Source of the DNA: Xylella taiwanensis
GTDB lineage: Bacteria; Pseudomonadota; Gammaproteobacteria; Xanthomonadales; Xanthomonadaceae
Assembly: GCF_013177435.1 (NCBI RefSeq)
Contig: NZ_CP053627.1
Location: 2,610,001-2,642,000 of the forward strand
DNA length: 32,000 bases
Direction: 5' to 3'
In this document: one piece after another, positions 237-16,910 of the stretch
How positions within the stretch are numbered: the stretch's first letter is position 1
Layout: every line of letters starts with the position of its first letter
Translations under genes and position numbers: made by a program
The notes under the pieces: generated by a model
The model's database searches: none
Told to the model about the DNA's origin: nothing
What the model saw: only the letters and a program-made list of their open reading frames with translations

Positions 237-1391
237 CTATACCCTTGAGACTCCAGTAAATACCGCCAACTTCATTTGGCTCAACTGCTGTAGCCTGAAG
301 TTGGTGACCTCTTTGATTTTTCTGATTTGCTTGATCAGAGAGCAGATTTCCCTCTGCTTTGTCAGTGGCAATATCGGAACACGAATCCTGCCAACATCAT
401 TCGCTGATGCTCGCTGCCGTCCGGTTGAACCAGACATTATTCCGGCAGCTTGAGAATGGAAAACGCGCGACGTAATTAGGTGATAGAGATACTGTTGATC
501 CGTTCCCTCTTTCGCTCTGAAAACGATGAATTCTGTCGATCCACCAGATTTCTCGATTGAAACAGGAACCTGCGCAATCTTCCCGTTTTCAAGGCAAGGC
601 GTAATTCTTGCCATCAGAATATCTCCACCTTGGGCTCTGATACCGCCTCTTTTACCTTTCTTTTCGATTTTGGATGGATTGATCTTTTGGGTCCAAGGAT
701 CAACTGCCTCCATCGGGATAAATGGATCTTCTTCGGAAAGCGAGGAAACCTTTGGGTTAATCTCAGCAATCTGACTTATCGGTTGTTGAATTAAAGACGC
801 ATCACTCCACACGTAATGCTGGAAAATCGCTTCTATCAGCAACGAAGACCTTCCTTCAAGAGAGATCAAATCGTCAGAATTACGTTCAATCTCCAGGAAT
901 AAGCCTACTATCCGCCGTTGCTCCTCCATCGGCGGCAGCGCGAACTCGAACTTCGCCAAGCTCGTCCAGTGCGTGCGTGGGCTTAACGAGCCAGCGGAGG
1001 TACTCACCGCGTGATCAAAAAAGGCGTCGGTCTGGCAAATGAAGGGCAACAACTCCGGCAGCAGCACCTGGGCGTCCTTGGATTCCAATACGTAGATGTC
1101 ACCAGAACACACCCCCGCGAAATCCGCCACGGCCACTTTGCGCTGATAGGCGCGGCGCTTACCGAATAACACCTGCCCGGGCTGAAACACGCTGGTAAAG
1201 GTGACGCCGTCAGCGACATGGCCCCAACGGCGAATACGCACATCCTCTGGTTGGAGATGTTCCAGACCGACGTAACGTTCCAAGCCATCGGCCAACGGAT
1301 CTTGGCTGCGTCCCTTGGAGAGGCGCACCACATCGCCAAATCTCACCCGACGCCAACCAGGCTTCAAAGGGGTGCTGTGCTGATCAAACAC
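237..1391 (-). CDS. hsdS: Type I R-M specificity subunit (HsdS), two target-recognition domains
   Basis: 384-aa ORF. Two TRD halves are each followed by the conserved HsdS helix motif (ALPPMEEQRRIVGLFLEIE and ILPLTKQREICSLIKQIRKI). GTG start overlaps the upstream hsdM stop by 8 nt. Confidence 0.9.
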   Translation of the reverse strand: MFDQHSTPLKPGWRRVRFGDVVRLSKGRSQDPLADGLERYVGLEHLQPEDVRIRRWGHVADGVTFTSVFQPGQVLFGKRRAYQRKVAVADFAGVCSGDIYVLESKDAQVLLPELLPFICQTDAFFDHAVSTSAGSLSPRTHWTSLAKFEFALPPMEEQRRIVGLFLEIERNSDDLISLEGRSSLLIEAIFQHYVWSDASLIQQPISQIAEINPKVSSLSEEDPFIPMEAVDPWTQKINPSKIEKKGKRGGIRAQGGDILMARITPCLENGKIAQVPVSIEKSGGSTEFIVFRAKEGTDQQYLYHLITSRVFHSQAAGIMSGSTGRQRASANDVGRIRVPILPLTKQREICSLIKQIRKIKEVTNFRLQQLSQMKLAVFTGVSRV

Positions 1392-2910
1392 GCGTGTTGT
1401 CCTCGGCGATCAATCCATCCAGCGTCTCCACCAACGCATCCATCTGTTGCCAGAAGGCGCAGGCGTCGCTTTGCCATTGGTCCCACGTCGCGCGCCATGT
1501 CATGGCATCGCCATTGCTTGATGTGGCCGGGGCAGCAGTCAACCGTTTGACATACAGCGGGATCGACAGGTTGCCCGCATTGGCAGCGATGTCGGCCAGG
1601 GTGGCGACCTTGGCGAAGCCGGGGACATCGGCACAGGTGGTGTACGCGGTGAGGATGCGCTGTTGGTGTTCGGGGGTGAGGAAGCTCTGCGTGCGCTCGC
1701 GGGTGACCTCGTTGACCGCGTCGATGAAGATGACGTTGCCCTGACGCGCGGCGGCTTTGTTGCGGTTGCAGATGAGGATGCAGGATTCCATCGGGGAGTT
1801 GTAGAACAGGTTGGGGCCCAGGCCGATGACGGCTTCGACCCAGTCTTGGGCGACCATCTTGGCGCGCATGGATTGTTCTTCGTTACGGAATAAGACGCCA
1901 TGTGGCCAGAGCACGGCACAGCGGCCCTGGGGGCTGAGGCTGCTGAGGATGTGTTGCTGAAAGGCGTAATCGGCGCGGCCCTGGGGCGGGGTCCCCAGGG
2001 CATTGCGGCCCCAGATGTCGGTGCTCCAGGCTTGGCGGTTCCACTGTTTGATGGAATACGGGGGGTTGGCCAGGATGACGTCGAATTGGCGGAGGCGGTC
2101 GCCGGCAATGTGCTTGGGGTCGGCGAGGGTGTCGCCCCGGATGATGTCGAAGTCTTCGACGCCGTGCAGGAATAAGTTCATGCGGGCAATGGAGGAGGTG
2201 ATGAGGTTGCGCTCTTGTCCGTAGAGGGTGAGGGTGCGGTGTTCGCCGCCGGAGCGTTTCACTTGGTCCAGGGCGGAGATGAGCATGCCGCCGGTGCCGC
2301 AGGTGGGGTCATAGATGGATTCGCCGGGCTGCGGTGCGAGTAGTTGGGTCATCAGGTGGACGACGGTGCGGTTGGTGTAGAACTCGGCGGCGGTGTGGCC
2401 GGAGTCGTCAGCAAATTTTTTGATGAGGTATTCGTAGGCGTTGCCGAGTTCGTCTTCGGGGACGTTGGCCAGGGACAGGGTTTGGGTGGAGAAGTGTTCG
2501 ATCAGGTTCTTTAGGGTGGCGTCGGGGAGGCGCTCGTGGTTGGTCCAGGGGGCATCGCCGAAGATGCCATCGAGGCGCTCTGGGTTGGCTGTTTCGATGG
2601 CGCGCATGGCTTTTTGGATGACGGCGCCGACATGTTTCGGGGTCTGGCGTAGGTCGTTCCAATGGGCGCCGGGGGGAATTTGGAAGCGATGGTGTTCGGC
2701 GAATTGGGCATAGGAGAGGTCACCCTTGGAGTGACGCAGTGCGGCTTGGTATTCCTCGTCCCAGACATCCGAGAGGCGTTTGTAGAACAGCAGCGGGAAG
2801 ATGAATTGTTTGTAGTCGCCGGCGTCGATCAGGCCACGCAGTAGGACGGCGGCACCCCAGAGGTAGCTTTGCAGCGCTTGCGGGGTGAGGCGTGTGCTGG
2901 GGTGGTTCAT
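1384..2910 (-). CDS. hsdM: Type I R-M N6-adenine DNA methyltransferase subunit, second (diverged) paralog
   Basis: ORF 1384..2919. Has HsdM_N-like N-terminus (LWGAAVLLRG...FIFPLLFYKRLSDVWDEE), AdoMet motif DPTCGTGGML and catalytic NPPY. The second ATG at 2910 is preferred: AGGAGG lies 9 nt upstream and it forms an ATGA overlap with the upstream hsdM stop. The first ATG at 2919 abuts the SD. Confidence 0.88.
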   Translation of the reverse strand: MNHPSTRLTPQALQSYLWGAAVLLRGLIDAGDYKQFIFPLLFYKRLSDVWDEEYQAALRHSKGDLSYAQFAEHHRFQIPPGAHWNDLRQTPKHVGAVIQKAMRAIETANPERLDGIFGDAPWTNHERLPDATLKNLIEHFSTQTLSLANVPEDELGNAYEYLIKKFADDSGHTAAEFYTNRTVVHLMTQLLAPQPGESIYDPTCGTGGMLISALDQVKRSGGEHRTLTLYGQERNLITSSIARMNLFLHGVEDFDIIRGDTLADPKHIAGDRLRQFDVILANPPYSIKQWNRQAWSTDIWGRNALGTPPQGRADYAFQQHILSSLSPQGRCAVLWPHGVLFRNEEQSMRAKMVAQDWVEAVIGLGPNLFYNSPMESCILICNRNKAAARQGNVIFIDAVNEVTRERTQSFLTPEHQQRILTAYTTCADVPGFAKVATLADIAANAGNLSIPLYVKRLTAAPATSSNGDAMTWRATWDQWQSDACAFWQQMDALVETLDGLIAEDNTRV

Positions 2911-4409
2911 GGCAACCATCCTCCTTGGGTCATGATCTGGGTGAGGCGCGCTTCGGCGTCGCGGCAGCGGGTGAGCGCGTCCTTAAAGGCGGCAATGGCG
3001 TCGGGCAGCGGGGGGATGTCTTCTTGGAGGGGCGGCAGGACATAGCGGGAAATATTCAGGGTCCAATCTGCGGCTTTGATCTCATTGAGGCTAACCACGC
3101 GCACCGCGTCCTGTACCTCGGCATAGCCGCGATACCAGCGGAGGATCTCGGCGGCGTGTGCGGGCTCTAGATAGTTCTGAGCGCGCCCGCGGCGGAATAG
3201 CCGTGATGCATCGGCAATCAATACTTTGTTTTTATGCTTGGCCGGTTTGCGCTTGCGCAGTACCAGGATGCAGGCGGCCAGACCGGTGCCGTAGAACAGA
3301 TTGGGGGCCAGGCCAATCACCGCTTCAATCAGATCCATGTGCAACAGGGTCTGGCGGATGCGGCCTTCGACGCCTTTGCGAAACAGGGTCCCCTGGGGCA
3401 GGACCACGGCCATGCGGCCGCTGACGTCGGCCATTGAGGTGACCATGTGTTGCACCCAGGCGAAGTCGCCGCTGCTGGAGGGGGGCAGGCCGGCGAAATG
3501 GCGGCCAAAGGGGTCGTGCAACCACAGCTCTTCGCCCCACTTTTTGAGGGAGAACGGCGGATTGGCAATGACGCAATCGAAGGTGGCCAGGCGGTCGCCT
3601 TCGAAGAAGGCCGGGGCGCGCAGGGTGTCGCCGCGGACAATGTGGAAGTCTTCGATGCCATGCAGAAACAGGTTCATCCGTGCAATGGATGAGGTGGTGA
3701 GGTTCTTTTCTTGCCCGTAGAGTTTTCCCCAGAGTCTTTTTACATCGCCCTGCTGTTGTTGGACGTGCTGCATGGCCGCCAGGAGCATGCCGCCGGTACC
3801 GCAAGCCGGGTCGTAAATGGTGTCGGTGTCCTTGGGATCAAGGATATCGATCATCAACCGCACGACGCTGCGGGGGGTATAGAACTCACCGGCCTTTTTA
3901 TTGGTGGCGTCGGCAAATTTTTTGATGAGGTATTCATAGGCATCGCCAAGCAGGTCGGAATGGATGTTGTTGTTGCCAAACGACAACGTGGAGAAATGCT
4001 CGATCAGGTCTTTGAGGAGTGCATCGGAAAGGCGCTCTTTGTTTGACCATTGGGCATCGCCGAAAACGCCATACAGGGTTTCCGGGTTGGCCTTTTCGAT
4101 TTCGCGCATGGCGCGCTGTAGTGCGGTACCGACATCGGTGGCCTTGGTGCGCACGTCGTTCCAGTGGCAGTCGTCCGGAATCTGGAAGCGGTGCGACTCT
4201 GGGAACCAGGACAGTTGTTCATCGCCGGTCTCATCGATGATCTCTTGGTACTCCTCGTCCCAGACATCGCAGATGCGCTTGAAGAACAGCAACGGGAAGA
4301 TGTAGGTCTTGAAGTCTGCTGCATCCACCGGGCCGCGCAGGATGTTGGCGGATTCCCAAAGGTGACTTTCTAGCTGGCTCAGGGTGATGTGCTGGTCGCT
4401 CACCGGCAT
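2907..4409 (-). CDS. hsdM: Type I R-M N6-adenine DNA methyltransferase subunit, first paralog
   Basis: 500-aa ORF with LWESANILRG...YIFPLLFFKRICDVWDEE, GEFYTPRSVV, DPACGTGGML and NPPFSLKKW. GAGGA SD lies 5 nt before the ATG. Confidence 0.92.
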   Translation of the reverse strand: MPVSDQHITLSQLESHLWESANILRGPVDAADFKTYIFPLLFFKRICDVWDEEYQEIIDETGDEQLSWFPESHRFQIPDDCHWNDVRTKATDVGTALQRAMREIEKANPETLYGVFGDAQWSNKERLSDALLKDLIEHFSTLSFGNNNIHSDLLGDAYEYLIKKFADATNKKAGEFYTPRSVVRLMIDILDPKDTDTIYDPACGTGGMLLAAMQHVQQQQGDVKRLWGKLYGQEKNLTTSSIARMNLFLHGIEDFHIVRGDTLRAPAFFEGDRLATFDCVIANPPFSLKKWGEELWLHDPFGRHFAGLPPSSSGDFAWVQHMVTSMADVSGRMAVVLPQGTLFRKGVEGRIRQTLLHMDLIEAVIGLAPNLFYGTGLAACILVLRKRKPAKHKNKVLIADASRLFRRGRAQNYLEPAHAAEILRWYRGYAEVQDAVRVVSLNEIKAADWTLNISRYVLPPLQEDIPPLPDAIAAFKDALTRCRDAEARLTQIMTQGGWLP

Positions 4410-4477
4410 GGTGGTCCTCTAGCAATGCCGGCGTACGGCGGCATCTGGGTGTGTTTGGTCTGCATCGGTGACTCGAA

Positions 4478-4825
4478 TCACCGCTGTTGTTTGACGATGT
4501 CGCGCACCGGCTGCTTTGGGTTTCCCAATACGCCTGCGGCGGCCAGGGGCTGCAACCATACCTTGGCCTGGACGTTTGAGACGTTCCGTGCGGCGGCTAC
4601 GTCGAGGTTTTGCAGCAGCGCCAGCAAGCGTTACTGAATGGCGGCACGCAGCGCTGCAAATCATACGTCAGCCGGGGATGATCCTAGCTGTAGCGACGCG
4701 GTGATCTGGTGTGGGGGGTGGCGCCGCTTCTGGTATAGCTGGCGACGATGCCAACGGGACAATTGATTCCGGACGCGAGCGCTTGGGTAGCGACACGTTG
4801 ATGGTATTGCATGGCCAAAATCGCC
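4478..4825 (-). pseudogene. Decayed small HTH (XRE-like) gene upstream of the hsd operon
   Basis: One reverse frame stays protein-like for about 115 codons: ...ARVRNQLSRWHRRQLYQKRRHPPHQITASLQLGSSPADV*FAALRAAIQ*RLLALLQNLDVAAARNVSNVQAKVWLQPLAAAGVLGNPKQPVRDIVKQQR*. It has no start codon and two in-frame stops (4661-4663 TGA, 4631-4633 TAA). QLSRW..R...P.....L...LG.S..D resembles helix 3 and the flank of XRE-type HTH domains. Confidence 0.3.
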
Positions 4826-5190
4826 TCATTAAGATGCGACACGCATCACATTACTCCACACCATGAAATTGCTTGCTGCATCGGTCGTAATGAGGCGCTT
4901 GGCTGTGGTGCATCGTGGCAAGGACACATTTTGCAGAAAGGGAGGTCTTCGCATGAAACCAGGCTTACTGCTGACAACACAGACCCGGGTGTGCTGCGCG
5001 GTGCATCGTGATTGCGCCGTGCCTGGAAGCGGCGCGGCAACAACGCATGGTTGTCCAGAGAAACCAGCCCGCTTTGATGGTGTTGTATTTTCAAGATCAC
5101 CGCATCGCCGGGCGCATCATCGGCGGCAAGCGGCGAATCTTTTTGAGGTTTCGAGGCAAATATCCCAAACATGTGATTCACATCGTTTAC

Positions 5191-5252
5191 GTTGTTTCTG
5201 AGTCGAAATGCCGATGTGTTGCATCCCATCAGGTTTTAAATGGAATTTAAAA
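5191..5252 (+). repeat. Conserved leader, copy A (precedes paralog 1)
   Basis: gttgtttctgagtcgaaatgcc...cccatcaggttttaaatggaatttaaaa-ATG. It shares the GTTGTTTC.ACGTC.AAA block and the CA.CA.G.TTTAAATGGAG.TCAA-ATGAAAAGAGTCTGGACATTATT block with copies at 7256 and 9038, and partly with the copy at 6225. Confidence 0.8.
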
Positions 5253-6143
5253 ATGAAAAGAGTCTGGACATTATTCATGGTGTCTGTGTTGTTTATGGCT
5301 CAATCCGTCTCTGCGGTGGCGCCGGAGTCAGAAGAGGATCGGTTTTATACCACAGCCATAGAAGTGCCCTGCCCCGGAGAGGATTTTGCAGCGTTTCTTG
5401 AAAAGTTCTCCAATGATGCAAGCATCCAGCGGGAATTCACCGAATACCCGCTGAAAAAACAGGCACTGGATCTGTCCGCCGCGCCAGAGGTGAGGAAAAT
5501 CATAAAATACTTGGAAAGCAATCAAATTCAGCACCCCGTATTGCCTTTGCGTGCCGAACGGGAGAAGAAATCGCTGAATATTACCAAGATTCGTCCAAGA
5601 TATTTAAATGAAACCAGGAGAGCGATCTTAACCAAACCTGGCAAGGATGATTTAATGGTGTACGAATTTGTTAAGAATGGTTGCTGGCATTTGTCGTCCA
5701 TTGATGATCGCTCGCTCACGGGCGGAAATCCAAAGCTGCATTGGGCGGATCATATTTTCCCAGCGATGGATGATTGCACCCCATATCATTTTTATTTCGA
5801 TGAAAAATCCAAGCGTTCCAGCAATGGCGTATTGGAACGTAAGGGGTATTCTCCTTATAAAGTTGATGCATCTTTTGCACGATATAAAGTGCATGAAAAA
5901 TTTATGGGCCTGGATGCCACGGAGATTGCGATCCCATCCAACAGCAACACACACGCTATGTATATGGTGGCGGTGCCGGTCAGCGTACAACGTCTTGCGG
6001 CGGCGGTGGAAACAAGCACCGGGCATCGCTTGGCGATTGCCCCACCAACATTCGAATCCCCATCCGGAGTGGCTTACCTTGTAGAGGCAGGGGAACACAC
6101 ATCGAGTGTTGTTTGCAGAGTTAATGATCAAGGAGGATTTTAA
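5253..6143 (+). CDS. Secreted two-domain protein, long form of the local paralog family (NTF2-like N-domain guess plus unknown C-domain)
   Basis: Track ORF 5208..6143. ATG 5253 is preferred because all four paralogs begin MKRV(W/L)TLF at that point. Sec signal MKRVWTLFMVSVLFMAQSVSA|VAP. Shared module CPGEDFAAFLEKFSNDASIQREFTEYPL...VKNGCWHLSSID. Extra C-terminal domain of about 150 aa ends DQGGF. Confidence 0.75.
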   Translation: MKRVWTLFMVSVLFMAQSVSAVAPESEEDRFYTTAIEVPCPGEDFAAFLEKFSNDASIQREFTEYPLKKQALDLSAAPEVRKIIKYLESNQIQHPVLPLRAEREKKSLNITKIRPRYLNETRRAILTKPGKDDLMVYEFVKNGCWHLSSIDDRSLTGGNPKLHWADHIFPAMDDCTPYHFYFDEKSKRSSNGVLERKGYSPYKVDASFARYKVHEKFMGLDATEIAIPSNSNTHAMYMVAVPVSVQRLAAAVETSTGHRLAIAPPTFESPSGVAYLVEAGEHTSSVVCRVNDQGGF

Positions 6144-6145
6144 TC

Positions 6146-6286
6146 ATGCTCATTCCCCACCCTAGCCCCGATGTCCGCTCTGGCTCTGGCGCCAGGGAGC
6201 GGCCAACGCAAGGCGCTTCCACTGGTTTGCAATGCTCACGTCTCTGCGTTTTATCGCACCAAGCTTTAAATGGAGCTCGAACATGA
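6146..6286 (+). pseudogene. Short ORF or 5' stub resembling the N-terminus of an M23 peptidase gene
   Basis: ATG lies 2 nt after the paralog-1 stop, with AAGGAGGA 8 nt upstream. MLIPHPSPDVRSGSGARERPTQGASTGLQC... Homologous to the stub at 7156, with many differences silent. G.G..RERP aligns with TGNYRETRPGKPPHGGID of the M23-RTX protein. Ends in an ATGA overlap with the paralog-2 start. Confidence 0.3.
6225..6282 (+). repeat. Conserved leader, copy B (more diverged; precedes paralog 2)
   Basis: gtttgcaatgctcacgtctctgcgttttatcgcaccaagctttaaatggagctcgaac-ATG. The 3' half matches the other leaders. Confidence 0.6.
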
Positions 6287-7153
6287 AAAGAGTCTGGACA
6301 TTATTCGTAGTGTCTGTGTTGTTTCTGGCGCACCCCGTCGCTGCGGTAGGGCCTGCTCCACAAGCACATCAAATGCACGCCGCAGCCGTGCCGAGTGTGT
6401 CCTGTCCTGGAGAAGATTTTTCATCGTTTTTCAAGAAATTCTCCGATGATGAAAACATCCAACGGGCTTTCACCCAGTCTCTGCTGAGAATAAAGGAATT
6501 GGATCTGTCTGCGGCACCAGAAGTAAAGAAAGTGGTCAAACACTTAAGACACGATCAAATCCAGTTCCCCGTGTTTCCTTTGCGCGCCGAACGGGAAAAG
6601 AAATCATTGGAGATTATCAGTAGAAATTTAAATGAAAGAATATTAATTCAGCCAGGAAAGGATTATTTAATGGCGTACAAATTTGTTAAGAATGGCTGTT
6701 GGTATTTGTCGTCTATCGATAATCAATCGTTCACTGGTGGCCATCCCACACTACATATGGGTGGATAATATTTTCCCATCCATGGAGGATTGTATGCCAA
6801 ATGATTTTTATTGGGACCCGCAATCTAAGCGCACCAGCAATGGTGTTTTAGAACGCAAAGGATATTCTCCTTATAAGATCGAGGAATATCTTGCAAGGTA
6901 CAAAGTACATGAAAAGTTTATGGGCTTGGATGCCACGGAAATCGCGATTCCATCCAACACATATCCAATTTATATGGTCACGACACCAGTGAGTGCAAAG
7001 CGTCTTGCCGCTGCGATTAAAAAAAGAACCGGCTATCAGTTGGCCATTGCCACCCCAACGTTCAAATCTCAATCCGGGGTAGCCTACCTTGTAGAGGAAG
7101 GGAAAAACAAATCGAGTGTTGTGTGCATTACTGACGAAGAAGGAGGATTTTAA
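6283..7153 (+). pseudogene. Long-form paralog 2, interrupted by a 1-nt frameshift near 6755-6757
   Basis: Track ORFs 6232..6768 and 6683..7153 together align end to end with the 5253..6143 protein. The intact copy reads GGNPKLHWADHIFPAMDD. This copy reads GGHPTLHMGG* in frame 1 and ..HYIWVDNIFPSMED in the next frame. Removing one base from ctacatAtgggtg restores LHWVDNIFP. Confidence 0.8.
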
Positions 7154-7155
7154 TC

Positions 7156-7230
7156 ATGCCTATTTACAACCCCGGCCCTGATTTTCGCCCAGGCTCTGGT
7201 TATGGTTCTAGGGAGAGGCCTATTCAATGA
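7156..7230 (+). pseudogene. Second 5' stub resembling an M23 peptidase N-terminus
   Basis: Same geometry as 6146: AAGGAGGA, 8 nt, then ATG 2 nt after the stop. MPIYNPGPDFRPGSGYGSRERPIQ*. The TGA sits where the 6146 copy has GGC, and homology continues after it (VSRCLQC versus ASTGLQC). Confidence 0.3.
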
Positions 7231-7255
7231 GTTTCCAGATGTTTGCAATGTTGCT

Positions 7256-7316
7256 GTTGTTTCTACGTCGAAACGTTAATACGTTTTATCCCATCAGGTT
7301 TTAAATGGAGTTCAAC
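7256..7316 (+). repeat. Conserved leader, copy C (precedes paralog 3)
   Basis: gttgtttctacgtcgaaacgttaatacgttttatcccatcaggttttaaatggagttcaac-ATG. Confidence 0.8.
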
Positions 7317-7781
7317 ATGAAAAGAGTCTTGACATTATTGATGGTGTCTGTGTTGTTTATGGCTCACACCGTTTATGCGGTGGCACCTGGCGCACAGGAA
7401 AACCAATTGCACACTTCAGCGACACCGAGTGTGCCCTGTCCCGGAAAGGATTTTGCATCGTTTCTTGAAAAATTCTCTAATGACGAAAATATCCAGCGGG
7501 CTTTTACCAAGTATCCACTTACAGAATATCAAGTTGATGTTACTGCTGAGCCAGAACCAAAACAATTCAAGCGAATACTGCAACGCTGGCAAATTCAATT
7601 CCCCGTCATGCCACTGCGCCAGGAGCGCAGCAAGGTCCCCTTAAACATTGAAGTACTTACACTCACCTCAAACAAAGCACACATTCGTTTAGTCAAGCAA
7701 GACACGGATTATCAAATTTCCTATTTCTTCAGAAAAAAAGGCCGTTGGAAACTTGTCAAGATTGACAATGAATCACTTTAA
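7317..7781 (+). CDS. Secreted short-form paralog 3 (shared N-domain only)
   Basis: Track ORF 7305..7781. MKRV start at 7317 with GGAG 6 nt upstream. Signal MKRVLTLLMVSVLFMAHTVYA|VAP. CPGKDFASFLEKFSNDENIQRAFTKYPL...YFFRKKGRWKLVKIDNESL. Roughly 80% identical to the 9100..9564 protein by my hand alignment. Confidence 0.8.
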   Translation: MKRVLTLLMVSVLFMAHTVYAVAPGAQENQLHTSATPSVPCPGKDFASFLEKFSNDENIQRAFTKYPLTEYQVDVTAEPEPKQFKRILQRWQIQFPVMPLRQERSKVPLNIEVLTLTSNKAHIRLVKQDTDYQISYFFRKKGRWKLVKIDNESL

Positions 7782-7887
7782 ATACATCAGGCGCTCTTAA
7801 GGGAGATGGAAACATGGTCCTTATAGAGCACACCATTCATGGCGAAAATAAAAGTCACGCTGTAAAAACAAATCAATTGGAGTATTC

Positions 7888-8363
7888 ATGATGTTAACAA
7901 GCGCGTTTCATCCCCGTATGGCTGTGCTGCTGGCGGTGATTGCTTTTGGAGTTTTTTCGAGCGTCCATGCAGGTCATCCACACACCCCACCGATCAAGGG
8001 TTCACACATGATAGCCGACGAAAACAGAGAATATGCCGAACAGATGTTTAAGGAATATCCCAAGCTTTTCCCAAAAGAAAGGCGGTCATCGATATTACAT
8101 GGGATTATATTAATAGGGATGACGCCTTTTGAAGCAAAATTAGCCGGAGGTGCTTTTTTTATAAGGTGAGTGCCGACAGAACCCGATGGCCGGAACATAG
8201 CGACCCGATGGATGTGATGTGGGGGCAATCGATAAAACCAGATCATAGTGAAATCTGGATGACGTTTAAAAACGCGTATCAGTTCCCTGATGAAGGCGAG
8301 GTGCCATTTCGGGTGTATTTCAAGCAAGGGCACGCGGTCAAGATAGAGAAGCTGGAGCCGTAA
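7888..8363 (+). pseudogene. Small exported protein (BamE/SmpA-OmlA-like guess) split at a T7 homopolymer
   Basis: ORF 7888..8169 has the signal MAVLLAVIAFGVFSSVHA|GHP and ends AFFIR* right after T7 (8154-8160). ORF 8166..8363 (GTG, no signal) continues in the +1 frame. T8 or T5 would give one protein of about 158 aa: ...IGMTPFEAKLAGGAFFYKVSADRTRWPE...EIWMTF...VPFRVYFKQGHAVKIEKLEP. Confidence 0.55.
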
Positions 8364-8364
8364 T

Positions 8365-8943
8365 ATGTCAAGGAAAATAGTCAAGCGTTGTATCTTGTTT
8401 CTCCTGGGCACGTTATTCCTGGGGGTTGTCGTCTTGTTGATTTACTGGTTTGGTCCTGATTTTAGGGGCAATGACCCAAGTGAACCACGCATTACATTAG
8501 CTTTTGACCCTAAAAAAGTGGGAGAAACGTATTCATTCGACGTGAATCTCCTCGAGCCAGTGACTTGCGATTTGAGTCTAAGATTTTACATTGTCGCTCT
8601 AAATAAATGGTCTTATCTTCTTGATAAATACCCAGGCCCTCAAGAAGAAGACCGTTTTTATAAAATCGTGGGGAACAAGGAACTGAATAATGATAATGAG
8701 CCAAGAATGCCTGTAAAGTTGCGGGTGCAAATTATACAACAGGCAGACAACAAAATACTTCTGGATGAAGTGGTGGCTTATCCCGAAAGTTCATCGGCAT
8801 ACATGGGAAGAAATGCCACTTTGTTCGACAAAACGCTCCAGGCTGGAAGATATACCATCCGCATCGACTATCTGGAAGGCGCGCCTGAACTCGCACCGTT
8901 CCCCGCTGAAATATGGTTTAGCCGAGCCTACACTGGAAAATAA
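8365..8943 (+). CDS. N-terminally membrane-anchored protein of unknown function
   Basis: 192-aa ORF whose ATG lies 1 nt after the preceding stop. One hydrophobic helix (CILFLLGTLFLGVVVLLIYWF) is followed by a beta-rich soluble part. No motif I can name. Confidence 0.7.
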   Translation: MSRKIVKRCILFLLGTLFLGVVVLLIYWFGPDFRGNDPSEPRITLAFDPKKVGETYSFDVNLLEPVTCDLSLRFYIVALNKWSYLLDKYPGPQEEDRFYKIVGNKELNNDNEPRMPVKLRVQIIQQADNKILLDEVVAYPESSSAYMGRNATLFDKTLQAGRYTIRIDYLEGAPELAPFPAEIWFSRAYTGK

Positions 8944-8952
8944 GGAGATTAC

Positions 8953-9027
8953 ATGTATACCGTAACGATTAATATTGCTGCCCCAGGAACAAGGCTTAAT
9001 AATGCTGGTGATGGCACCCTTGATTAG
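8953..9027 (+). other. 24-codon ORF with a strong Shine-Dalgarno; status unknown
   Basis: AAGGAG, 6 nt, ATG. MYTVTINIAAPGTRLNNAGDGTLD*. It occupies the same kind of slot as the stubs at 6146 and 7156 (after a cassette gene, before the next leader) but is not obviously homologous to them. Confidence 0.2.
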
Positions 9028-9037
9028 CACTATTGAT

Positions 9038-9099
9038 GTTGTTTCCACGTCCAAATATCTATGTATTTAATCTCACCAAGTTTTAAATGGAGTTCAAAA
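9038..9099 (+). repeat. Conserved leader, copy D (precedes paralog 4)
   Basis: gttgtttccacgtccaaatatctatgtatttaatctcaccaagttttaaatggagttcaaaa-ATG. Confidence 0.8.
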
Positions 9100-9564
9100 A
9101 TGAAAAGAGTCTGGACATTATTCACAATATCTTTGTTTTTCACGGCTCAAACCGTCTATGCGGTACCACCTGATGCACAGGCAAATCAATTGCATCACTC
9201 AGCCGTACCAAATGTGCCCTGTCCCGGAAAGGATTTTGTATCGTTTCTTGAAAAATTCTCCAATGACGAAAATATCCAGCGAGCTTTCACCACATATCCG
9301 CTGATACAAGATGAATATGATACTACTGCTGAGCCCGAACCAAAAGAATTCCGGCGAATTCTGCAGCGTGAACAGATTCAATTCCCCGTCATGCCACTGA
9401 GCCAAGAGCGCAGCAAGGTACCCTTAAACATTGAAGTCCTTAAACTCACCTCAAACAAAGCACACATTCGTTTATTCAAGGAAGACACTGATTATCAAAT
9501 TTCCTATTTCTTCAGAAAAAAGGGCTGTTGGAAACTTGTCAAAATTCACAATCAATCACTTTAG
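9100..9564 (+). CDS. Secreted short-form paralog 4, immediately upstream of the M23-RTX gene
   Basis: Track ORF 9061..9564, with the MKRV start at 9100. Signal MKRVWTLFTISLFFTAQTVYA|VPP. CPGKDFVSFLEKFSNDENIQRAFTTYPL...FFRKKGCWKLVKIHNQSL. Stop lies 20 nt before the ATG at 9585. Confidence 0.8.
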   Translation: MKRVWTLFTISLFFTAQTVYAVPPDAQANQLHHSAVPNVPCPGKDFVSFLEKFSNDENIQRAFTTYPLIQDEYDTTAEPEPKEFRRILQREQIQFPVMPLSQERSKVPLNIEVLKLTSNKAHIRLFKEDTDYQISYFFRKKGCWKLVKIHNQSL

Positions 9565-9584
9565 ATAAACTAAGGACACATTAA

Positions 9585-12500
9585 ATGAACTTTAATGACG
9601 TAATGAACAGGATGCTTCCACCACAAGACGGAACACCACCTCATGTGACCGGAAATTATCGAGAAACCAGACCCGGGAAACCACCGCATGGCGGCATTGA
9701 TTTTAATTATCAGGGGGGACAAACCGGTATTAATCTGACTCATCCAACAATCTACTCACCGATCAGCGGTACGGTGACATTCGTTGGCGGACAATTTGCA
9801 ACGATCAAAATTCGAGATGCAGATGGCAACAGTCATGAAATTCTCCATACACATTCTCAAGCGGTCACGGTGGGGCAACAGATCAATGCTGGGGACCCCA
9901 TAGGCACCATGGGGGGCCGTGGGCCAAACGGTATCAATGAATTCGCCCAGCACGTGCATTACCAAATGAAAGACCCACAAGGGCGCCGTATTAATCCACA
10001 AGATTGGTGGGACAACGGAGGTAGTGGTATTCGTGGTAGCGACAGCGCTGGCCACTCAAACCACGGGACAGGCGCGGCGGGCGGCCCCGGGGCGGGCGGC
10101 GCCAGTGTCAGCAAACGGAATACGTACCTGGCGCCCCGCGATCCGCTGGCGTTGGATTTGGACGGTGACGGCATCGAAACCACTAGTACGCAAGATGGCA
10201 CGCAGAATGGCCGCGTCATCCTGTTTGACCACGATGGTGATGGCGTCAAGACGGGCACTGGCTGGGTGAAGCCCGATGATGGCTGGCTGGTGCTGGACCG
10301 CGATGGCAACGGGACGATTGATTCCGGGCGCGAGCTCTTCGGTATCGACACGCTGAAACGCAACGGGCAACGAGCCACGGACGGTTTTGATGCGTTGCGC
10401 GATGAGGATAGCAACCAGGATGGCACGATCGACGCGGCCGACAGTGTGTTTGCGCATCTGCGGATTTGGCGTGATCTGAATCAAGACGGCGTCAGCCAGG
10501 CTAACGAACTCAGTACGCTGGCGGATAACAAGATCATTTCGATTGGGGTCAATGCGACAGCAGGGCGTATTGATCTAGGTCACGGCAATGTACAAACGGC
10601 GACGGGGACGTTTACCCGCTCTAACGGCACCACGGGTACCGCCAACCCCAGCAATGGCACCGCCGCCAATCTGGATGTGCTAGCCGATACGTTTTACCGG
10701 GATTTCACGCAACGGGTGGCGCTGACGGATCAAGCCAAGGCGCTTCCCTTTTTGCGCGGGTCTGGGCGGGTCCGCGACTTGGACGAGGCGATCAGTCTGT
10801 CTAGCGATCTGGGCAACTGGGTGCAGGCTTACAGTGAGCAAACCACGCGGCAAGCGCAGCTTGAGCGGTTGGATGGTTTGATGGAGCGATGGGTCAACAC
10901 CTCTGACATGAAGTCTCTGCAGGCGCAAGCCGATGCACTGAAACGCAATGGCGTTACGCTGACTTACGTGCTGTCTGGATTAGCGCCGGGAACAGCGGCC
11001 TATGAGGATTTTTTGCGCAAGCTGGGCATTGTGGAGCGCTTGATGGGCTTCACGTATGGCGGTCGTCAGGGGGAGGCGCGTTTTACGCCATTGGATGCGG
11101 CGTCCGGCAAGATGACGGTGACGTTGTCGGATGCGCAGGTGACTAACATTGCATTGGCGTATGAGCGCTTCAAAACAGATATTTATGAATCGCTGTTGCT
11201 GACAACCAGGCTGGCGCCCATCTACACCCTGGCGGAGATGAATTTTGTCAATGGCGCATGGGTCACGGACTGGAGTGGCGTAGAACAGGCGCTCAAACAG
11301 GGGATTCAACGCAATCCACGTGAGGGAATACTGGATGCCATTGAGTTTGTCAGTGCACTGGGATACAAGACCGCCGCAGAGATGGGCTGGGATGGGATCG
11401 GCTTCCTCACCGACCAACTCAATGCGACCCCGGAGTTGGGAGCGTTCATTAAGGAATCAAGCAGTTGGACGGTGATCTTTGCCGCCGCCAACGAACATTA
11501 CCTTCCTGGCACCTTGGGCTCGGATTTGCTGGTGGGCACATCAGGTGATGACAGCATCATAGGAGAGCAAGGCAACGACGTATTTATTGGTAAAGGCGGG
11601 AACGATACCTTCGACGGCGGCAGCGGGAACGACACCTACGAGTTCGCCATTGGTTCCGGCGTGGATCGCATCTACGAGCAAGACTCCACCGCAGGCAACA
11701 CGGATGTGGTGAGGTTTGCCGATGTTGCGTCCACCGCGCTCACCGCGCTGGAGCGCAAGGGGAATGATCTGGTGATCAAGTACGGCGCCAACGATCAATT
11801 AACCATAAACAACTACTTCATTGCTCCAGACTATAAGGTCGAGCAATTCAAATTCAGTGATGGGGTGACCTGGGATGACGTCGCGATCAAAATGCACGCC
11901 ATCACCAAGGGCGACGCCAGCAACAACTTCATCCTCGGCTACAACGACGGCAGCAACCGCATCTACGGCCTGGAGGGTGACGACATCATCTACGGTGGCG
12001 CACTGGCCGACACTTTGGACGGGGGGACCGGCAATGACACCCTCAACGGCGGTGCCGGTAACGATATCTATCAGTTCGCCATCGGTTCCGGCGTGGATCG
12101 CATCGAAGACTACGGAGGCAACACGGACGTGGTGAGGTTTGCCGATGTCGCCTCCACCGCGCTGACCGCGCTGGAACGTAAGGACAATGACCTGGTGATT
12201 AAGTACGGCGCCAGCGACCAACTGACAGTCAGCGGTTATTTCTACCCCGGGGACTCGGGCGCCAAGATCGAGCAGTTTAAATTCAGCGATGGCGTCACCT
12301 GGGATGAAACCGCGATCAAAGCGCGTGTCATCACCAAGGGCGACGCCAACAACAACACGATATTAGGCTACAACGACGGCAGCAACCGTATCTATGGCTG
12401 GGACGGCAACGACGCCATCTACGGTGGCGCACTGGCCGACACGCTGTACGGCGGCGCAGGCAACGACATGCTCAGCGGCAACAGCGGTGCGGACCTCCTG

Positions 12501-14066
12501 GATGGCGGGACCGGTAACGACGTGCTCAATGGCGGCAGCGGTAACGATATCTATCAGTTCGCCATCGGTGCCGGCGTGGATCGCATTGAAGACTGCGACA
12601 GCACCGCAAGCAACACGGACGTGGTGAGGTTTGCCGATGTCGCCTCTACCGCGCTGACTGCGCTGGAGCGCAAGGGGAATGACCTGGTGATCAGGTACGG
12701 CAGCAGCGACCAACTGACCGTAAGCGAGTATTTCAACCCCAACACTTCAAGCTATAAGGTCGAGCAGTTCGCGTTCAGCGATGGTGTGACCTGGGATGAC
12801 GCCGCGATCAAAGCGCGCGTCATCACCAACGGCGATGCCTACAACAATTACATCGTCGGTTACAACGACGGCAACAACCGTATCTATGGCCTGGATGGTA
12901 ACGACGAGATCTACGGCGGCACCCTCGCCGATACGCTGTACGGCGGCGATGGGTTTGACACGTTGATCGGCAATGGGGGGGATGACACCTTGCTTGGCGG
13001 TGCCGGCAATGACGTGCTCGGCGGCAACAGCGGTGCGGACCTGCTGGACGGCGGGACCGGTAATGACACGCTATACGGTGACGCAGGCAATGACATCTTG
13101 GATGGCGGCACCGGTAACGATGTGCTCGACGGCGGCAGCGGCAACGATACCTACAGGTTCGCCAGCGGTTCCGGGGTGGATCGCATCGAAGACTACGACA
13201 CCACCGCAGGCAACAGCGACGTGGTGAGGTTTGCCGATGTCGCCTCCACCGCGCTGACTGCGCTGGAGCGCAAGGGGAATGACCTGGTGATCAGGTACGG
13301 CAGCAGCGACCAACTGACTGTGAGCAATTATTTCAACCCCTACACCTCAGGCTACAAGGTCGAGCAGTTCATGTTCAGCGATGGTGTGACCTGGGATGAC
13401 GCCGCGATCAAAGCACGTGTTATCACCAAGGGCGATGTCAACAACAACTATATCGTCGGCTATAACGACGGCAACAACCGTATCTATGGCCTGGACGGCA
13501 ACGATGAGATCTACGGTGGTGCATTGGCCGATACGCTGTACGGCGGCAATGGTAATGATGTGCTCAGCGGTGGCAGTGGTGCGGACCTGCTGGACGGCGG
13601 GACCGGCAATGACACGCTACACGGTGACGCAGGTAATGACATCTTGGATGGCGGCACCGGCAATGATGTGCTCGACGGTGGCAGCGGCAACGATACCTAC
13701 AGGTTCGCCAGCGGTGCCGGGGTGGATCGCATCTACGATTACGACACTACTGCGGGCAATACCGATGTGGTTTGCATCGGCCCAGGGGTGACAACCGATC
13801 AGCTTTGGTTCCGGCATGTTGGTGCCGATCTGGAAGTCAGCATCATGGGTACGAGCGATCAGATCACGATCAGCAATTGGTACTCCGATGCTGCATATCA
13901 TGTCGAGCAGTTCAAGACATCCGATGGCAAGGTGTTGCTTGATGGTGAAGTCAATGCGCTGGTCTCAGCGATGGCGGCCTTTGCGCCGCCAGCACTTGGA
14001 CACATGTCGTTGTCTGTCGATGAACAGAAGGCGTTACATCCGGTGATTGCTGCGCACTGGAAGTAA
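9585..14066 (+). CDS. Large RTX (T1SS-substrate-type) calcium-binding protein with N-terminal M23/LytM peptidase domain; bacteriocin-like
   Basis: 1493-aa ORF with AAGGA 9 nt upstream. M23 ligand motifs appear in order: TGNYRETRPGKPPH35GGID39F, LHTHS, QH123VH125YQ. Then a Gly-rich linker, PLALDLDGDGIET..FDHDGDG..LDRDGNGTIDSGRELFG, and a helical region. Five modules of GGxGxD nonapeptides follow, alternating with HCBP-related segments (VVRFADVASTALTALERKGNDLVI.YG..DQLT..NYF...YKVEQF.FSDGVTWD). No N-terminal signal peptide. Confidence 0.95.
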   Translation: MNFNDVMNRMLPPQDGTPPHVTGNYRETRPGKPPHGGIDFNYQGGQTGINLTHPTIYSPISGTVTFVGGQFATIKIRDADGNSHEILHTHSQAVTVGQQINAGDPIGTMGGRGPNGINEFAQHVHYQMKDPQGRRINPQDWWDNGGSGIRGSDSAGHSNHGTGAAGGPGAGGASVSKRNTYLAPRDPLALDLDGDGIETTSTQDGTQNGRVILFDHDGDGVKTGTGWVKPDDGWLVLDRDGNGTIDSGRELFGIDTLKRNGQRATDGFDALRDEDSNQDGTIDAADSVFAHLRIWRDLNQDGVSQANELSTLADNKIISIGVNATAGRIDLGHGNVQTATGTFTRSNGTTGTANPSNGTAANLDVLADTFYRDFTQRVALTDQAKALPFLRGSGRVRDLDEAISLSSDLGNWVQAYSEQTTRQAQLERLDGLMERWVNTSDMKSLQAQADALKRNGVTLTYVLSGLAPGTAAYEDFLRKLGIVERLMGFTYGGRQGEARFTPLDAASGKMTVTLSDAQVTNIALAYERFKTDIYESLLLTTRLAPIYTLAEMNFVNGAWVTDWSGVEQALKQGIQRNPREGILDAIEFVSALGYKTAAEMGWDGIGFLTDQLNATPELGAFIKESSSWTVIFAAANEHYLPGTLGSDLLVGTSGDDSIIGEQGNDVFIGKGGNDTFDGGSGNDTYEFAIGSGVDRIYEQDSTAGNTDVVRFADVASTALTALERKGNDLVIKYGANDQLTINNYFIAPDYKVEQFKFSDGVTWDDVAIKMHAITKGDASNNFILGYNDGSNRIYGLEGDDIIYGGALADTLDGGTGNDTLNGGAGNDIYQFAIGSGVDRIEDYGGNTDVVRFADVASTALTALERKDNDLVIKYGASDQLTVSGYFYPGDSGAKIEQFKFSDGVTWDETAIKARVITKGDANNNTILGYNDGSNRIYGWDGNDAIYGGALADTLYGGAGNDMLSGNSGADLLDGGTGNDVLNGGSGNDIYQFAIGAGVDRIEDCDSTASNTDVVRFADVASTALTALERKGNDLVIRYGSSDQLTVSEYFNPNTSSYKVEQFAFSDGVTWDDAAIKARVITNGDAYNNYIVGYNDGNNRIYGLDGNDEIYGGTLADTLYGGDGFDTLIGNGGDDTLLGGAGNDVLGGNSGADLLDGGTGNDTLYGDAGNDILDGGTGNDVLDGGSGNDTYRFASGSGVDRIEDYDTTAGNSDVVRFADVASTALTALERKGNDLVIRYGSSDQLTVSNYFNPYTSGYKVEQFMFSDGVTWDDAAIKARVITKGDVNNNYIVGYNDGNNRIYGLDGNDEIYGGALADTLYGGNGNDVLSGGSGADLLDGGTGNDTLHGDAGNDILDGGTGNDVLDGGSGNDTYRFASGAGVDRIYDYDTTAGNTDVVCIGPGVTTDQLWFRHVGADLEVSIMGTSDQITISNWYSDAAYHVEQFKTSDGKVLLDGEVNALVSAMAAFAPPALGHMSLSVDEQKALHPVIAAHWK
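11706..13765 (+). repeat. Intragenic tandem coding repeats of the RTX gene (periods about 423, 492, 600, 545 nt)
   Basis: gtggtgaggtttgccgatgt recurs at 11706, 12129, 12621 and 13221, with a diverged fifth unit from 13766. Units 3 and 4 are over 90% identical at DNA level by eye. Length differences come from added or lost GGxGxD nonapeptides. Confidence 0.9.
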
Positions 14067-16148: not shown

Positions 16149-16910
16149 TCAGTTGCGGGACTGAAGGTTGGACAGCAAACGCAAGCATTCAAGGTACAAC
16201 CACACCAACGTGACCATCAGGCCGAATGCACCATACCACTCCATGTACTTTGGTGCTCCGCGCTCGACACCGCTCTCAATGAAGTCAAAATCCAACACTA
16301 AGTTCAATGCGGCGATCACAACCACAAACAGGCTGAACACGATACCGAAAGTACTCGCTTCATGGAGCATTGGTATGCGTATCCCAAAGAAGCTTAATCC
16401 GAATGAGATCAGATAGAGTAAAGCGATACCACCTGTGGCAGCCGCGACGCCGAGCTTGAAATTCTCTGTAACCTTGATGAAACCACTACGATACGCCAGC
16501 AACATTGCTAGTAATACACTGAAGGTGAGTAGCACCGCTTGGAATACGATTCCACCAAGACGCGCTTCGTACACTGCTGAGATTGCACCGAGGAAAAATC
16601 CCTCTACAAGTGCGTACAGCGGTGCGGTGATGGGTGACCACTCTTTTTTGAAAACAGTGATCAGCGCTAGCACCAAACCACCGATCGCTCCAGCAATCAT
16701 ATAGCCACGCGCCGCTAGCACTGGTATGCCATCGACCCCAAGCGACTGATTCCAAGCAAAGACGGAAGTGACCAGCGCTAACAGCAGCAGTGCTCCAGTC
16801 TTGTTGACGGTGCCGTTTAAAGTCATCGCGTTACCGTCGCGGACGACAACCGAGCCAGTACCCAGATCAAGGAAGGTGGACTCCTTAAGAGCAGGATTTC
16901 CGCTACGCAT
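16149..16910 (-). CDS. Bax inhibitor-1/YccA family integral membrane protein
   Basis: 253-aa ORF with N-terminus MRSGNPALKESTF and about 7 hydrophobic helices. Matches my memory of BaxI_1-type (PF12811-like) proteins. Confidence 0.8.
   Translation of the reverse strand: MRSGNPALKESTFLDLGTGSVVVRDGNAMTLNGTVNKTGALLLLALVTSVFAWNQSLGVDGIPVLAARGYMIAGAIGGLVLALITVFKKEWSPITAPLYALVEGFFLGAISAVYEARLGGIVFQAVLLTFSVLLAMLLAYRSGFIKVTENFKLGVAAATGGIALLYLISFGLSFFGIRIPMLHEASTFGIVFSLFVVVIAALNLVLDFDFIESGVERGAPKYMEWYGAFGLMVTLVWLYLECLRLLSNLQSRN

Follow-up and report, generated by a model that had tools for sequence, protein, structure and literature searches.

The mini-ORFs and the array that holds them

In a 32,000-nt window of the Xylella taiwanensis genome (contig NZ_CP053627.1, positions 2,610,001 to 2,642,000; "the window" below means this whole stretch), two very short open reading frames (ORFs) each begin just behind a gene for one of two long paralogous proteins, in an array that also holds two short paralogs and a full-length gene for an M23-RTX protein. 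A preliminary description of this locus had taken the mini-ORFs for what remains of M23 peptidase genes, and we here consider what they are and how they arose. Throughout, M23-S denotes the M23 head of the window's own RTX protein, M23-L a second M23 subtype found in related genomes, and "stub" the part of a mini-ORF that matches the start of such a toxin gene. The array comprises the following features.

5173..5252, plus strand: leader of long paralog 1, delimited by DNA alignments; the same element of ~80-95 nt stands before each paralog
5253..6143, plus strand: long paralog 1, 296 aa, intact (ORF list); putative periplasmic immunity protein
6130..6137, plus strand: AAGGAGGA, Shine-Dalgarno (SD) sequence of the presumed former M23-L gene, in the last codons (QGGF) of long paralog 1
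6146-6286, plus strand: mini-ORF 1 (the stub 1 ORF), 46 aa, MLIPHPSPDVRSGSGARERPTQGASTGLQCSRLCVLSHQALNGART
6146..6223, plus strand: stub 1, ORF codons 1-26, derived from M23-L codons 1-28 with the loss of two codons (tblastn, Smith-Waterman, DNA alignment)
6224..6286, plus strand: remainder of the stub 1 ORF, an in-frame continuation into the leader of long paralog 2 (leader alignment)
6283..7153, plus strand: long paralog 2, a pseudogene in this genome, split by a 1-nt insertion near 6755-6758 into 6283-6768 and 6683-7153
7140..7147, plus strand: AAGGAGGA, SD sequence of the presumed former M23-L gene, in the last codons (EEGGF) of long paralog 2
7156-7230, plus strand: mini-ORF 2 (the stub 2 ORF), 24 aa, MPIYNPGPDFRPGSGYGSRERPIQ
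7156..7239, plus strand: stub 2, M23-L-derived DNA that runs beyond the TGA to ~7239 (alignment to M23-L)
7240..7316, plus strand: leader of short paralog 3 (alignment)
7317..7781, plus strand: short paralog 3, 154 aa, N-domain only, an orphan copy 79% identical in amino acids to short paralog 4
7795..7848, plus strand: third M23-L relic, an internal fragment GDGNMVLIEHTIHGE that matches GYGNTIVIEHTINGE (Hib4 codons ~61-77)
7888..8363, plus strand: frameshifted homolog of an X. fastidiosa 169-aa ORF, split into 7888-8169 and 8166-8363 (frameshift near 8150)
9100..9564, plus strand: short paralog 4, putative cognate immunity gene of the resident toxin, ending 20 nt before the toxin ATG
9585..14066, plus strand: resident full-length M23-S-RTX protein, 1493 aa, M23 head at the N-terminus followed by a body built of RTX and HCBP_related repeats

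The mini-ORFs proved to be laid out as first described. Their ATGs lie 2 nt past the stop codons of the long paralogs (TAA at 6141-6143, then ATG at 6146; stop at 7151-7153, then ATG at 7156), AAGGAGGA stands 8 nt before each ATG (6130-6137 and 7140-7147), and the two peptides are homologous, with a Smith-Waterman score of 58 against a shuffle mean of 18.9 (sd 4.2) that none of 5000 shuffles equalled and a two-codon gap in stub 1. The synonymous pairs that had been singled out (ccc/cct, ggc/ggt, cgg/agg, cca/cct) are present, as is the TGA of the second mini-ORF at the position where the first reads GGC. Since paralog, stub and leader together form a tandem repeat unit of ~1030 bp with ~75% identity, the similarity between the stubs says no more than that the whole unit was duplicated. 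Neither of the M23 zinc-ligand motifs, HxxxD and HxH, is found in the stubs themselves, which end at or before the residue preceding HxxxD (in M23-L, ...GGST-N-HRGQD) and are relics, not peptidases.

Each of the paralogs opens with a signal-peptide-like segment (MKRVWTLF..A.A; by inspection). The long form adds a C-domain to the N-domain that the short paralogs also have, and its homologs occur almost only in Xylella (X. fastidiosa), at the syntenic locus. No Pfam family was assigned to the paralogs, for which the search returned only sub-threshold noise (BACOVA_00961-like and NYN, E about 0.04-0.07). Long paralog 2 is the ortholog of X. fastidiosa long paralog 2, its C-domain being 82% identical in nucleotides to that gene and 74% to X. 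fastidiosa long paralog 1; its frameshift is not a sequencing error, since the same split is found in an independent Logan assembly (L010). Before every paralog, in both Xylella species, stands the leader of 80-95 nt (gtgatttgcaatg...cgtcgaaa...atcccatcaggttttaaatGGAGtt; in the window at 5173-5252, 6224-6282, 7240-7316 and ~9010-9099, and at 8960-9049 in the X. fastidiosa subsp. multiplex locus L002), which is conserved beyond the level of synonymous sites, ends in ...ttttaaatGGAGtt..ATG and carries a separate GGAG ribosome-binding site (RBS) for each paralog. An Rfam scan of 4400-9700 at E <= 1 gave no match, leader included; a scan for sigma-70 promoters and terminators found nothing on the plus strand across the array, and on that strand the leader has no sigma-70 consensus. 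It may act as a promoter, a regulator or a recombination site.

M23-L at the position of the stubs

The evidence for the origin of the stubs comes from related genomes. In X. fastidiosa Hib4 (locus L001), long paralog 2 is followed after 2 nt by an ATG (11839) with which an M23-RTX ORF begins. This ORF is preceded by the same GGAGGA as the stubs, starts with MAIYNPGSDFRPGSGDGPRKPPTPGGSDYHRGQD (short form MAIYNPGSDFRPGSGDGPRK), contains an M23 domain (PF01551, E = 3e-23) and runs on into an RTX body (~780 codons). A contig of subsp. fastidiosa (L005), which ends inside the M23-L gene, repeats the layout of Hib4, with GGAGGA and the N-terminus MPIYNPGSDFRPGSGYGPRKSPTPGGSTNHRGQD (short form MPIYNPGSDFRPGSGYGPRK); the N-terminal consensus of M23-L is M(A/P)IYNPGSDFRPGSG(Y/D)GPRK. 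The search of related genomes that the preliminary description had proposed thus found a full-length M23 gene at the very ATG of the stubs, in Hib4 and in L005. This supports its proposal that the stubs mark former immunity-plus-M23 pairs without the toxin body, and it links the paralog family to M23 toxins, with a long paralog immediately preceding M23-L in both genomes.

Similarity to M23-L is far above chance for all three relics in the window. Under tblastn and Smith-Waterman comparison, stub 2 is identical to the M23-L N-terminus (P0015) at 18 of 22 positions (z = 16.5) and stub 1 at 14 of 28, with the two-codon deletion (z = 6.9), in each case with 0 of 5000 shuffles as good. The fragment at 7795-7848 reaches z = 9.1 (0/5000 shuffles; tblastn E = 0.006-0.008 in a small database), and its DNA aligns closely with the M23-L genes of Hib4 and L005. 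This third relic calls for at least one rearrangement beyond those that the two stubs attest; it sits just after short paralog 3, where X. fastidiosa carries an M23-S stub. Against the window's M23-S, all three score z about 0. The comparison from which M23 ancestry had first been argued, GSGYGSRERP with TGNYRETRPGKPPHGGID of the window's M23-RTX protein, lies at chance level (stub 1 z = 0.4, with 1576 of 5000 shuffles as good; stub 2 z = -1.4), and we rejected it as support. Control by shuffling therefore separates the stubs from M23-S and ties them to M23-L. Their parent gene belonged to another M23 subtype than the window's full-length gene, and the two heads share only ~25% identity. Nor is "decapitated", the word first applied to these genes, apt: it has the matter backwards, as they kept their heads and lost their bodies.

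How the stubs end is equally informative. Homology to M23-L DNA extends from the SD sequence through ~codon 28 and then switches abruptly to the leader (gtttgcaatg...) common to all paralogs. Because the DNA passes there into a conserved paralog leader, the end of homology is a deletion junction and not a set of decayed zinc ligands; the STGLQ that had been read in place of the ligands is a misreading, the DNA from ~6224 being the leader of the next paralog and not mutated M23 codons. Other X. fastidiosa stubs at the same position, MPIYNPGSDFRPGSGYGPKK... (35 aa) and MPIYNPGSDFRPGYGPKNI (19 aa), break at ~codon 19 and join the leader at a different point from the window stubs, and it is because the junctions differ that the stub ORFs end after 46, 24, 35 and 19 aa. 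In our assessment the mini-ORFs are very probably non-functional 5' remnants of M23-L-headed RTX bacteriocin genes, scars of head displacement beside orphan immunity genes.

M23-L was also found in four contexts outside Xylella, from which it follows that the M(A/P)xYNPG N-terminus belongs to the enzyme and not to a pre-existing mini-ORF. A Methylotenera metagenome-assembled genome has a homolog of the long-paralog C-domain (45% identity, E = 4e-26; the ORF, L011 1-366, is cut by the contig end), followed after 3 nt by a stand-alone M23-L. On the Logan contig L017, a 176-aa protein (339-869) with a hydrophobic, signal-like N-terminal segment (by inspection) matches only the long-paralog C-domain (52% identity, E = 8e-42), and M23-L follows 11 nt later (Pfam E = 1e-25). 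The order in Methyloversatilis is HlyD (Pfam), a 200-aa ORF weakly similar to the C-domain, and M23-L fused to an RTX ORF of >2144 aa with 19 GGxGxD motifs, and in Nannocystis M23-L comes after VgrG.

Head exchange and the origin of the stubs

We surveyed the pairing of paralogs and heads in nine Xylella loci besides the window (L001-L005 and L007-L010), and it holds in every one of them: M23-L or its stub comes after a long paralog and M23-S or its stub after a short one, M23-S stubs in X. fastidiosa being MTFNDIMNRVLPPQD... and MSFNDIMNKILPPQEGTASHVTGNYGETRPRKP. Many X. fastidiosa strains possess an active RTX gene with a DUF6973 head, preceded by an unrelated ORF of 136 or 170 aa, which gives three head/partner pairs (long paralog with M23-L, short paralog with M23-S, 136/170-aa ORF with DUF6973), separated by 2 to 20 nt or overlapping by 4 nt. 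The RTX bodies under the three heads are 67-93% identical; between the M23-L-RTX of Hib4 and the DUF6973-RTX of L007, identity is 93% from the motif SNSHGTGAAGGPGAGG onward, and the heads are unrelated. That unrelated heads share so similar a body marks them as exchangeable cassettes on a conserved RTX body. In the resident protein of the window, the head matches PF01551 (E = 3e-12) and the body PF00353 (E = 6e-69), the latter over 17 stretches of tandem GGxGxD nonapeptide repeats (Pfam); databases name it a calcium-binding protein or a peptidoglycan DD-metalloendopeptidase family protein, and the entries identical in sequence to it and to the window's glycosyltransferase and BaxI proteins are assigned to X. 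taiwanensis. Polymorphic toxin loci canonically have a C-terminal toxin with its immunity gene downstream; given the N-terminal head and the candidate immunity gene upstream, the present locus is a variant of such toxin-immunity loci and not a plain member. The long paralog looks like a fusion of a short-like N-domain (paired with M23-S) and a C-domain (paired with M23-L), and it may be an immunity protein of dual specificity, in which, as the domain analysis suggests, the N-domain would answer M23-S and the C-domain M23-L.

Two further features of X. fastidiosa involve M23-S starts. The 169-aa ORF (L007 11486-11995; L002 11449-; L008 11506-) is a chimera in which ~15-20 codons from the start of M23-S (MTFNDIMNRVLPPQD) lead into an unrelated stretch of hydrophobic residues, and the gene appears to have captured the RBS and start codon of a dead toxin. 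In subsp. multiplex (L002 12548-12760), an extra module made of the last 29 codons of a short paralog and a 33-codon M23-S stub lies just upstream of the DUF6973 immunity/toxin pair, as a further displacement scar; searches of L007 and L008 did not pick it up.

These arrangements suggest the following history. Exchangeable toxin heads would sit N-terminally on a conserved RTX body that probably leaves the cell by type I secretion; the heads are M23-S in the window, M23-L in Hib4 and DUF6973 in other X. fastidiosa strains. Judging by domain identity, pairing and location, the head would attack peptidoglycan, and the upstream paralogs with their signal-like N-termini would be periplasmic immunity proteins. 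Head-plus-immunity cassettes would be exchanged by recombination, with the right-hand crossover in the conserved RTX body and an illegitimate left-hand break inside the old toxin gene, for which homology-facilitated illegitimate recombination is a suggested route. The upstream immunity gene would thereby survive together with the toxin's RBS, ATG and first 19-28 codons, which the survivors keep, since the immunity gene, 2 nt away, would be lost to any break lying further upstream. The stub, joined by then to the next immunity gene's leader of ~80-95 nt, would become part of an array of orphan immunity genes, each trailed by a stub, in which some orphans would be intact (long paralog 1 and short paralog 3) and some decaying (long paralog 2). 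Decay around the stubs, with long paralog 2 and the ORF at 7888-8363 both frameshifted, counts for reading them as remnants.

Several observations weigh against this history. Toxicity, immunity and secretion are predictions from sequence, and genes of a type I secretion system (T1SS; ABC transporter, HlyD or TolC) were not found in the 32-kb window. The AlphaFold2 model of long paralog 1, built on a 9-sequence alignment, is mediocre (predicted local distance difference test 69, predicted template modelling score 0.46), and a Foldseek comparison with the PDB gave weak matches to NTF2-like, cystatin-like and DUF4348 structures (E about 0.01, TM score 0.25-0.5); these small binding-type domains are only suggestive, and we did not use them as evidence. 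The M23-L-RTX gene of Hib4 is itself frameshifted in the RTX repeats after ~codon 780 (L001 ~14180), which makes it either a pseudogene or the product of an assembly error in the repeats. As to the stubs, SD and ATG are intact in all those examined (both window stubs and, from X. fastidiosa, two junction types), the ratio of nonsynonymous to synonymous divergence (pN/pS) between stub 1 and stub 2 is ~0.35 and resembles that of the flanking genes, and codons 1-17 of stub 2 are identical to X. fastidiosa M23-L at 47 of 51 nt, more than the ~77% (counted by eye) of the adjacent paralog 3' end; the pN/pS and the 47/51 identity make constraint or recent gene conversion possible. Finally, stub 1 and stub 2 share one junction, though long paralogs 1 and 2 diverged before the split from X. 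fastidiosa, and a simple course of events, be it one deletion followed by duplication or two independent deletions, needs gene conversion to fit it. Our best guess is gene conversion templated by an older junction; a secondary deletion in X. fastidiosa could also reconcile the junctions.

Could the stubs have been kept for a purpose? The preliminary description had named genuine coupled leader peptides as its alternative, and in its fuller form this would make the stubs maintained upstream mini-ORFs, recruited from the toxin 5' end, through which, by coupling of their SD-driven translation, expression of the downstream paralog is controlled. The intact AAGGAGGA/GGAGGA and ATG of every stub speak for it, as do the overlap of the stub 1 TGA (6284-6286) with the ATG of long paralog 2 (6283-6285; ATGA, 6283-6286), the coding-like divergence (pN/pS 0.35, permutation P = 0.03) and the 92% nucleotide identity of stub 2 codons 1-17 with X. 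fastidiosa. Yet the coding signal is weak: the P value comes from random placement of the 19 differences between the stubs, pN/pS values of ~0.2-0.35 cover 22-28 codons only, and the antisense frame matches the sense frame in amino-acid identity (17/29), so that the signal is not frame-specific and codon-based inference on the stubs is undermined. The minus strand of each stub region (6140-6232 and 7150-7248) holds an antisense ORF initiated by TTG (MQTSG..., 30 and 32 aa), probably as a by-product. The SD sequence, moreover, falls within the paralog's own last codons, each downstream paralog has a GGAG RBS of its own in the leader, and two stubs carry in-frame 2-codon deletions. Neither ORF length and C-terminus (46, 24, 35, 19 aa) nor the position of the stop relative to the next start is constant, as would be looked for in a regulatory leader peptide: only stub 1 overlaps the next ATG, and the stop of stub 2 falls 86 nt short of it. 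Both coupling and a role as recombination handle are disfavoured by these variable ends, by the fact that long paralog 2, the gene coupled to stub 1, is a pseudogene, and by the situation in X. fastidiosa, where no stub trails long paralog 1 and long paralog 2 lacks an SD before it. We hold coupled translation to be improbable.

A role in recombination seems to us still harder to credit. On that reading, stubs and leader would be homology handles by which a full M23-L head and body is re-installed through homologous recombination after natural transformation, in parallel to orphan contact-dependent inhibition (CDI) and Rhs modules that can recombine into the main gene. The full gene does lie at the exact stub position in some X. 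fastidiosa strains and stubs in close relatives, the 5' 51 nt of stub 2 are unusually conserved between the species, and X. fastidiosa is reportedly naturally competent. At 57-84 nt, though, the handles would be short, and selection against deletions extending into the immunity gene, 2 nt upstream, would account for their retention equally well; the recombination tract would be a presumed one. Taking both forms of maintenance together, in which the RBS, ATG and ~20 conserved codons plus the leader would be either recombination handles, by which naturally competent Xylella re-installs or exchanges M23-L heads at a fixed site, or translated coupling ORFs that keep orphan immunity genes expressed, we think it unlikely that the stubs are maintained parts of a head-swapping system. 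Were they so, in either role, Xylella would possess a programmed, 5'-polar cassette system for T1SS bacteriocins. Scarcely any weight, lastly, attaches to the idea that the stubs are intergenic DNA carried over in tandem duplication and unrelated to any M23 gene. The ~1030-bp unit indeed repeats at ~75% identity including its non-coding leader, and the M23 alignment within the window is at chance, but the highly significant matches to M23-L, and the full-length M23-L at the same ATG in other Xylella genomes, refute it. Displacement of M23-L heads thus stays the preferred account of the stubs.

The surroundings of the array complete the picture. On the plus strand, it spans the interval between a type I restriction-modification cluster and the BaxI gene, and contains one gene besides those listed above.

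237-4409, minus strand: type I restriction-modification cluster
8365..8943, plus strand: DUF5625 protein, syntenic in X. fastidiosa (Pfam PF18539, E = 2e-9)
16149-16910, minus strand: BaxI gene

In the restriction-modification cluster, one HsdS gene is adjoined by a tandem pair of HsdM-type N6-methylase genes on the minus strand (1384-2919, 511 aa, and 2907-4409, 500 aa), whereas the syntenic X. fastidiosa loci have a single HsdM. At the Hib4 locus, a stretch of repeated GCGGTGAT octamers lies behind the M23-L-RTX gene (L001 15935-16055).

Relation to known systems

Secreted M23 endopeptidases encoded beside a self-protection gene are known as weapons from lysostaphin with Lif and zoocin A with Zif, where immunity of the Lif/Zif type comes from FemABX-like enzymes, which modify the cross-bridge of Gram-positive bacteria. 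The Xylella candidates differ from these in that they are predicted to be small secreted proteins, more like the binding-type immunity of Gram-negative periplasmic effectors. Closer in architecture are the RTX bacteriocins of plant-associated bacteria, among them rhizobiocin RzcA and X. fastidiosa XF2407 and XF2759, whose mechanism of action is uncharacterised (Linhartova et al. 2010, PMC3034196). Like them, the window's 1493-aa protein and its X. fastidiosa homologs are large RTX-repeat proteins; unlike what we describe here, that review does not mention M23 or DUF6973 heads, immunity genes or head swapping, and our search of the literature brought up nothing on head swapping, immunity pairing or 5' stubs at this Xylella locus. 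The order of an N-terminal toxin domain followed by RTX repeats is shared by the Min-Wnt lipocone toxins, in which a different toxin domain lies N-terminal to RTX beta-roll repeats that are taken as a sign of T1SS export (Burroughs et al. 2025, PMC12419801); the passages on these toxins make no mention of orphan arrays or of stubs.

For 25 years, RTX "bacteriocins" of Xylella have figured in lists without a known mechanism (PMC3034196), and the locus gives a testable model for them: the killing head would be open to exchange, with M23 peptidoglycan endopeptidases as two of its three variants, the upstream signal-peptide paralogs would be the immunity proteins, and strains would differ in the head with which they are armed and in the immunities they retain. 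If true, the model predicts which Xylella strains exclude each other in the xylem or in insect vectors, a matter that bears on mixed infections and on biocontrol strains. By themselves the stubs are ordinary pseudogene fragments, of a kind that gene callers will report as tiny ORFs wherever displacement leaves a start codon behind; what they bring to light, in an important plant pathogen, is displacement in mirror image.

In Rhs and CDI systems, displaced toxin-tip/immunity modules accumulate beside the active gene. The Xylella locus resembles cdiA-CT/cdiI in combining a conserved body, a polymorphic toxin domain and an adjacent immunity gene (Jackson 2009 and Koskiniemi 2014, as cited in PMC5361080), with the polarity reversed: Rhs/CDI orphans are start-less 3' tips that lie downstream, whereas the Xylella orphans are body-less 5' heads that lie upstream. 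The nearest parallel for the array is Vibrio cholerae's type VI secretion system (T6SS), in which an incoming toxin-immunity module replaces the resident toxin and the old immunity gene stays, giving orphan immunity arrays, sometimes with effector remnants, for which homology-facilitated illegitimate recombination has been proposed (Kirchberger et al. 2017, PMC5361080). Both arrays would consist of orphan immunity genes left by displacement. In Xylella, however, the variable part is N-terminal, the immunity gene lies upstream and the array would grow on its 5' side, its scars being 5' heads with intact RBS and ATG and its carrier an RTX protein and presumed T1SS substrate. The logic of displacement and orphan immunity known from Rhs, CDI and T6SS would thus also operate in mirror image, at the 5' end of a gene for a toxin that is probably targeted through its C terminus, as in type I secretion.

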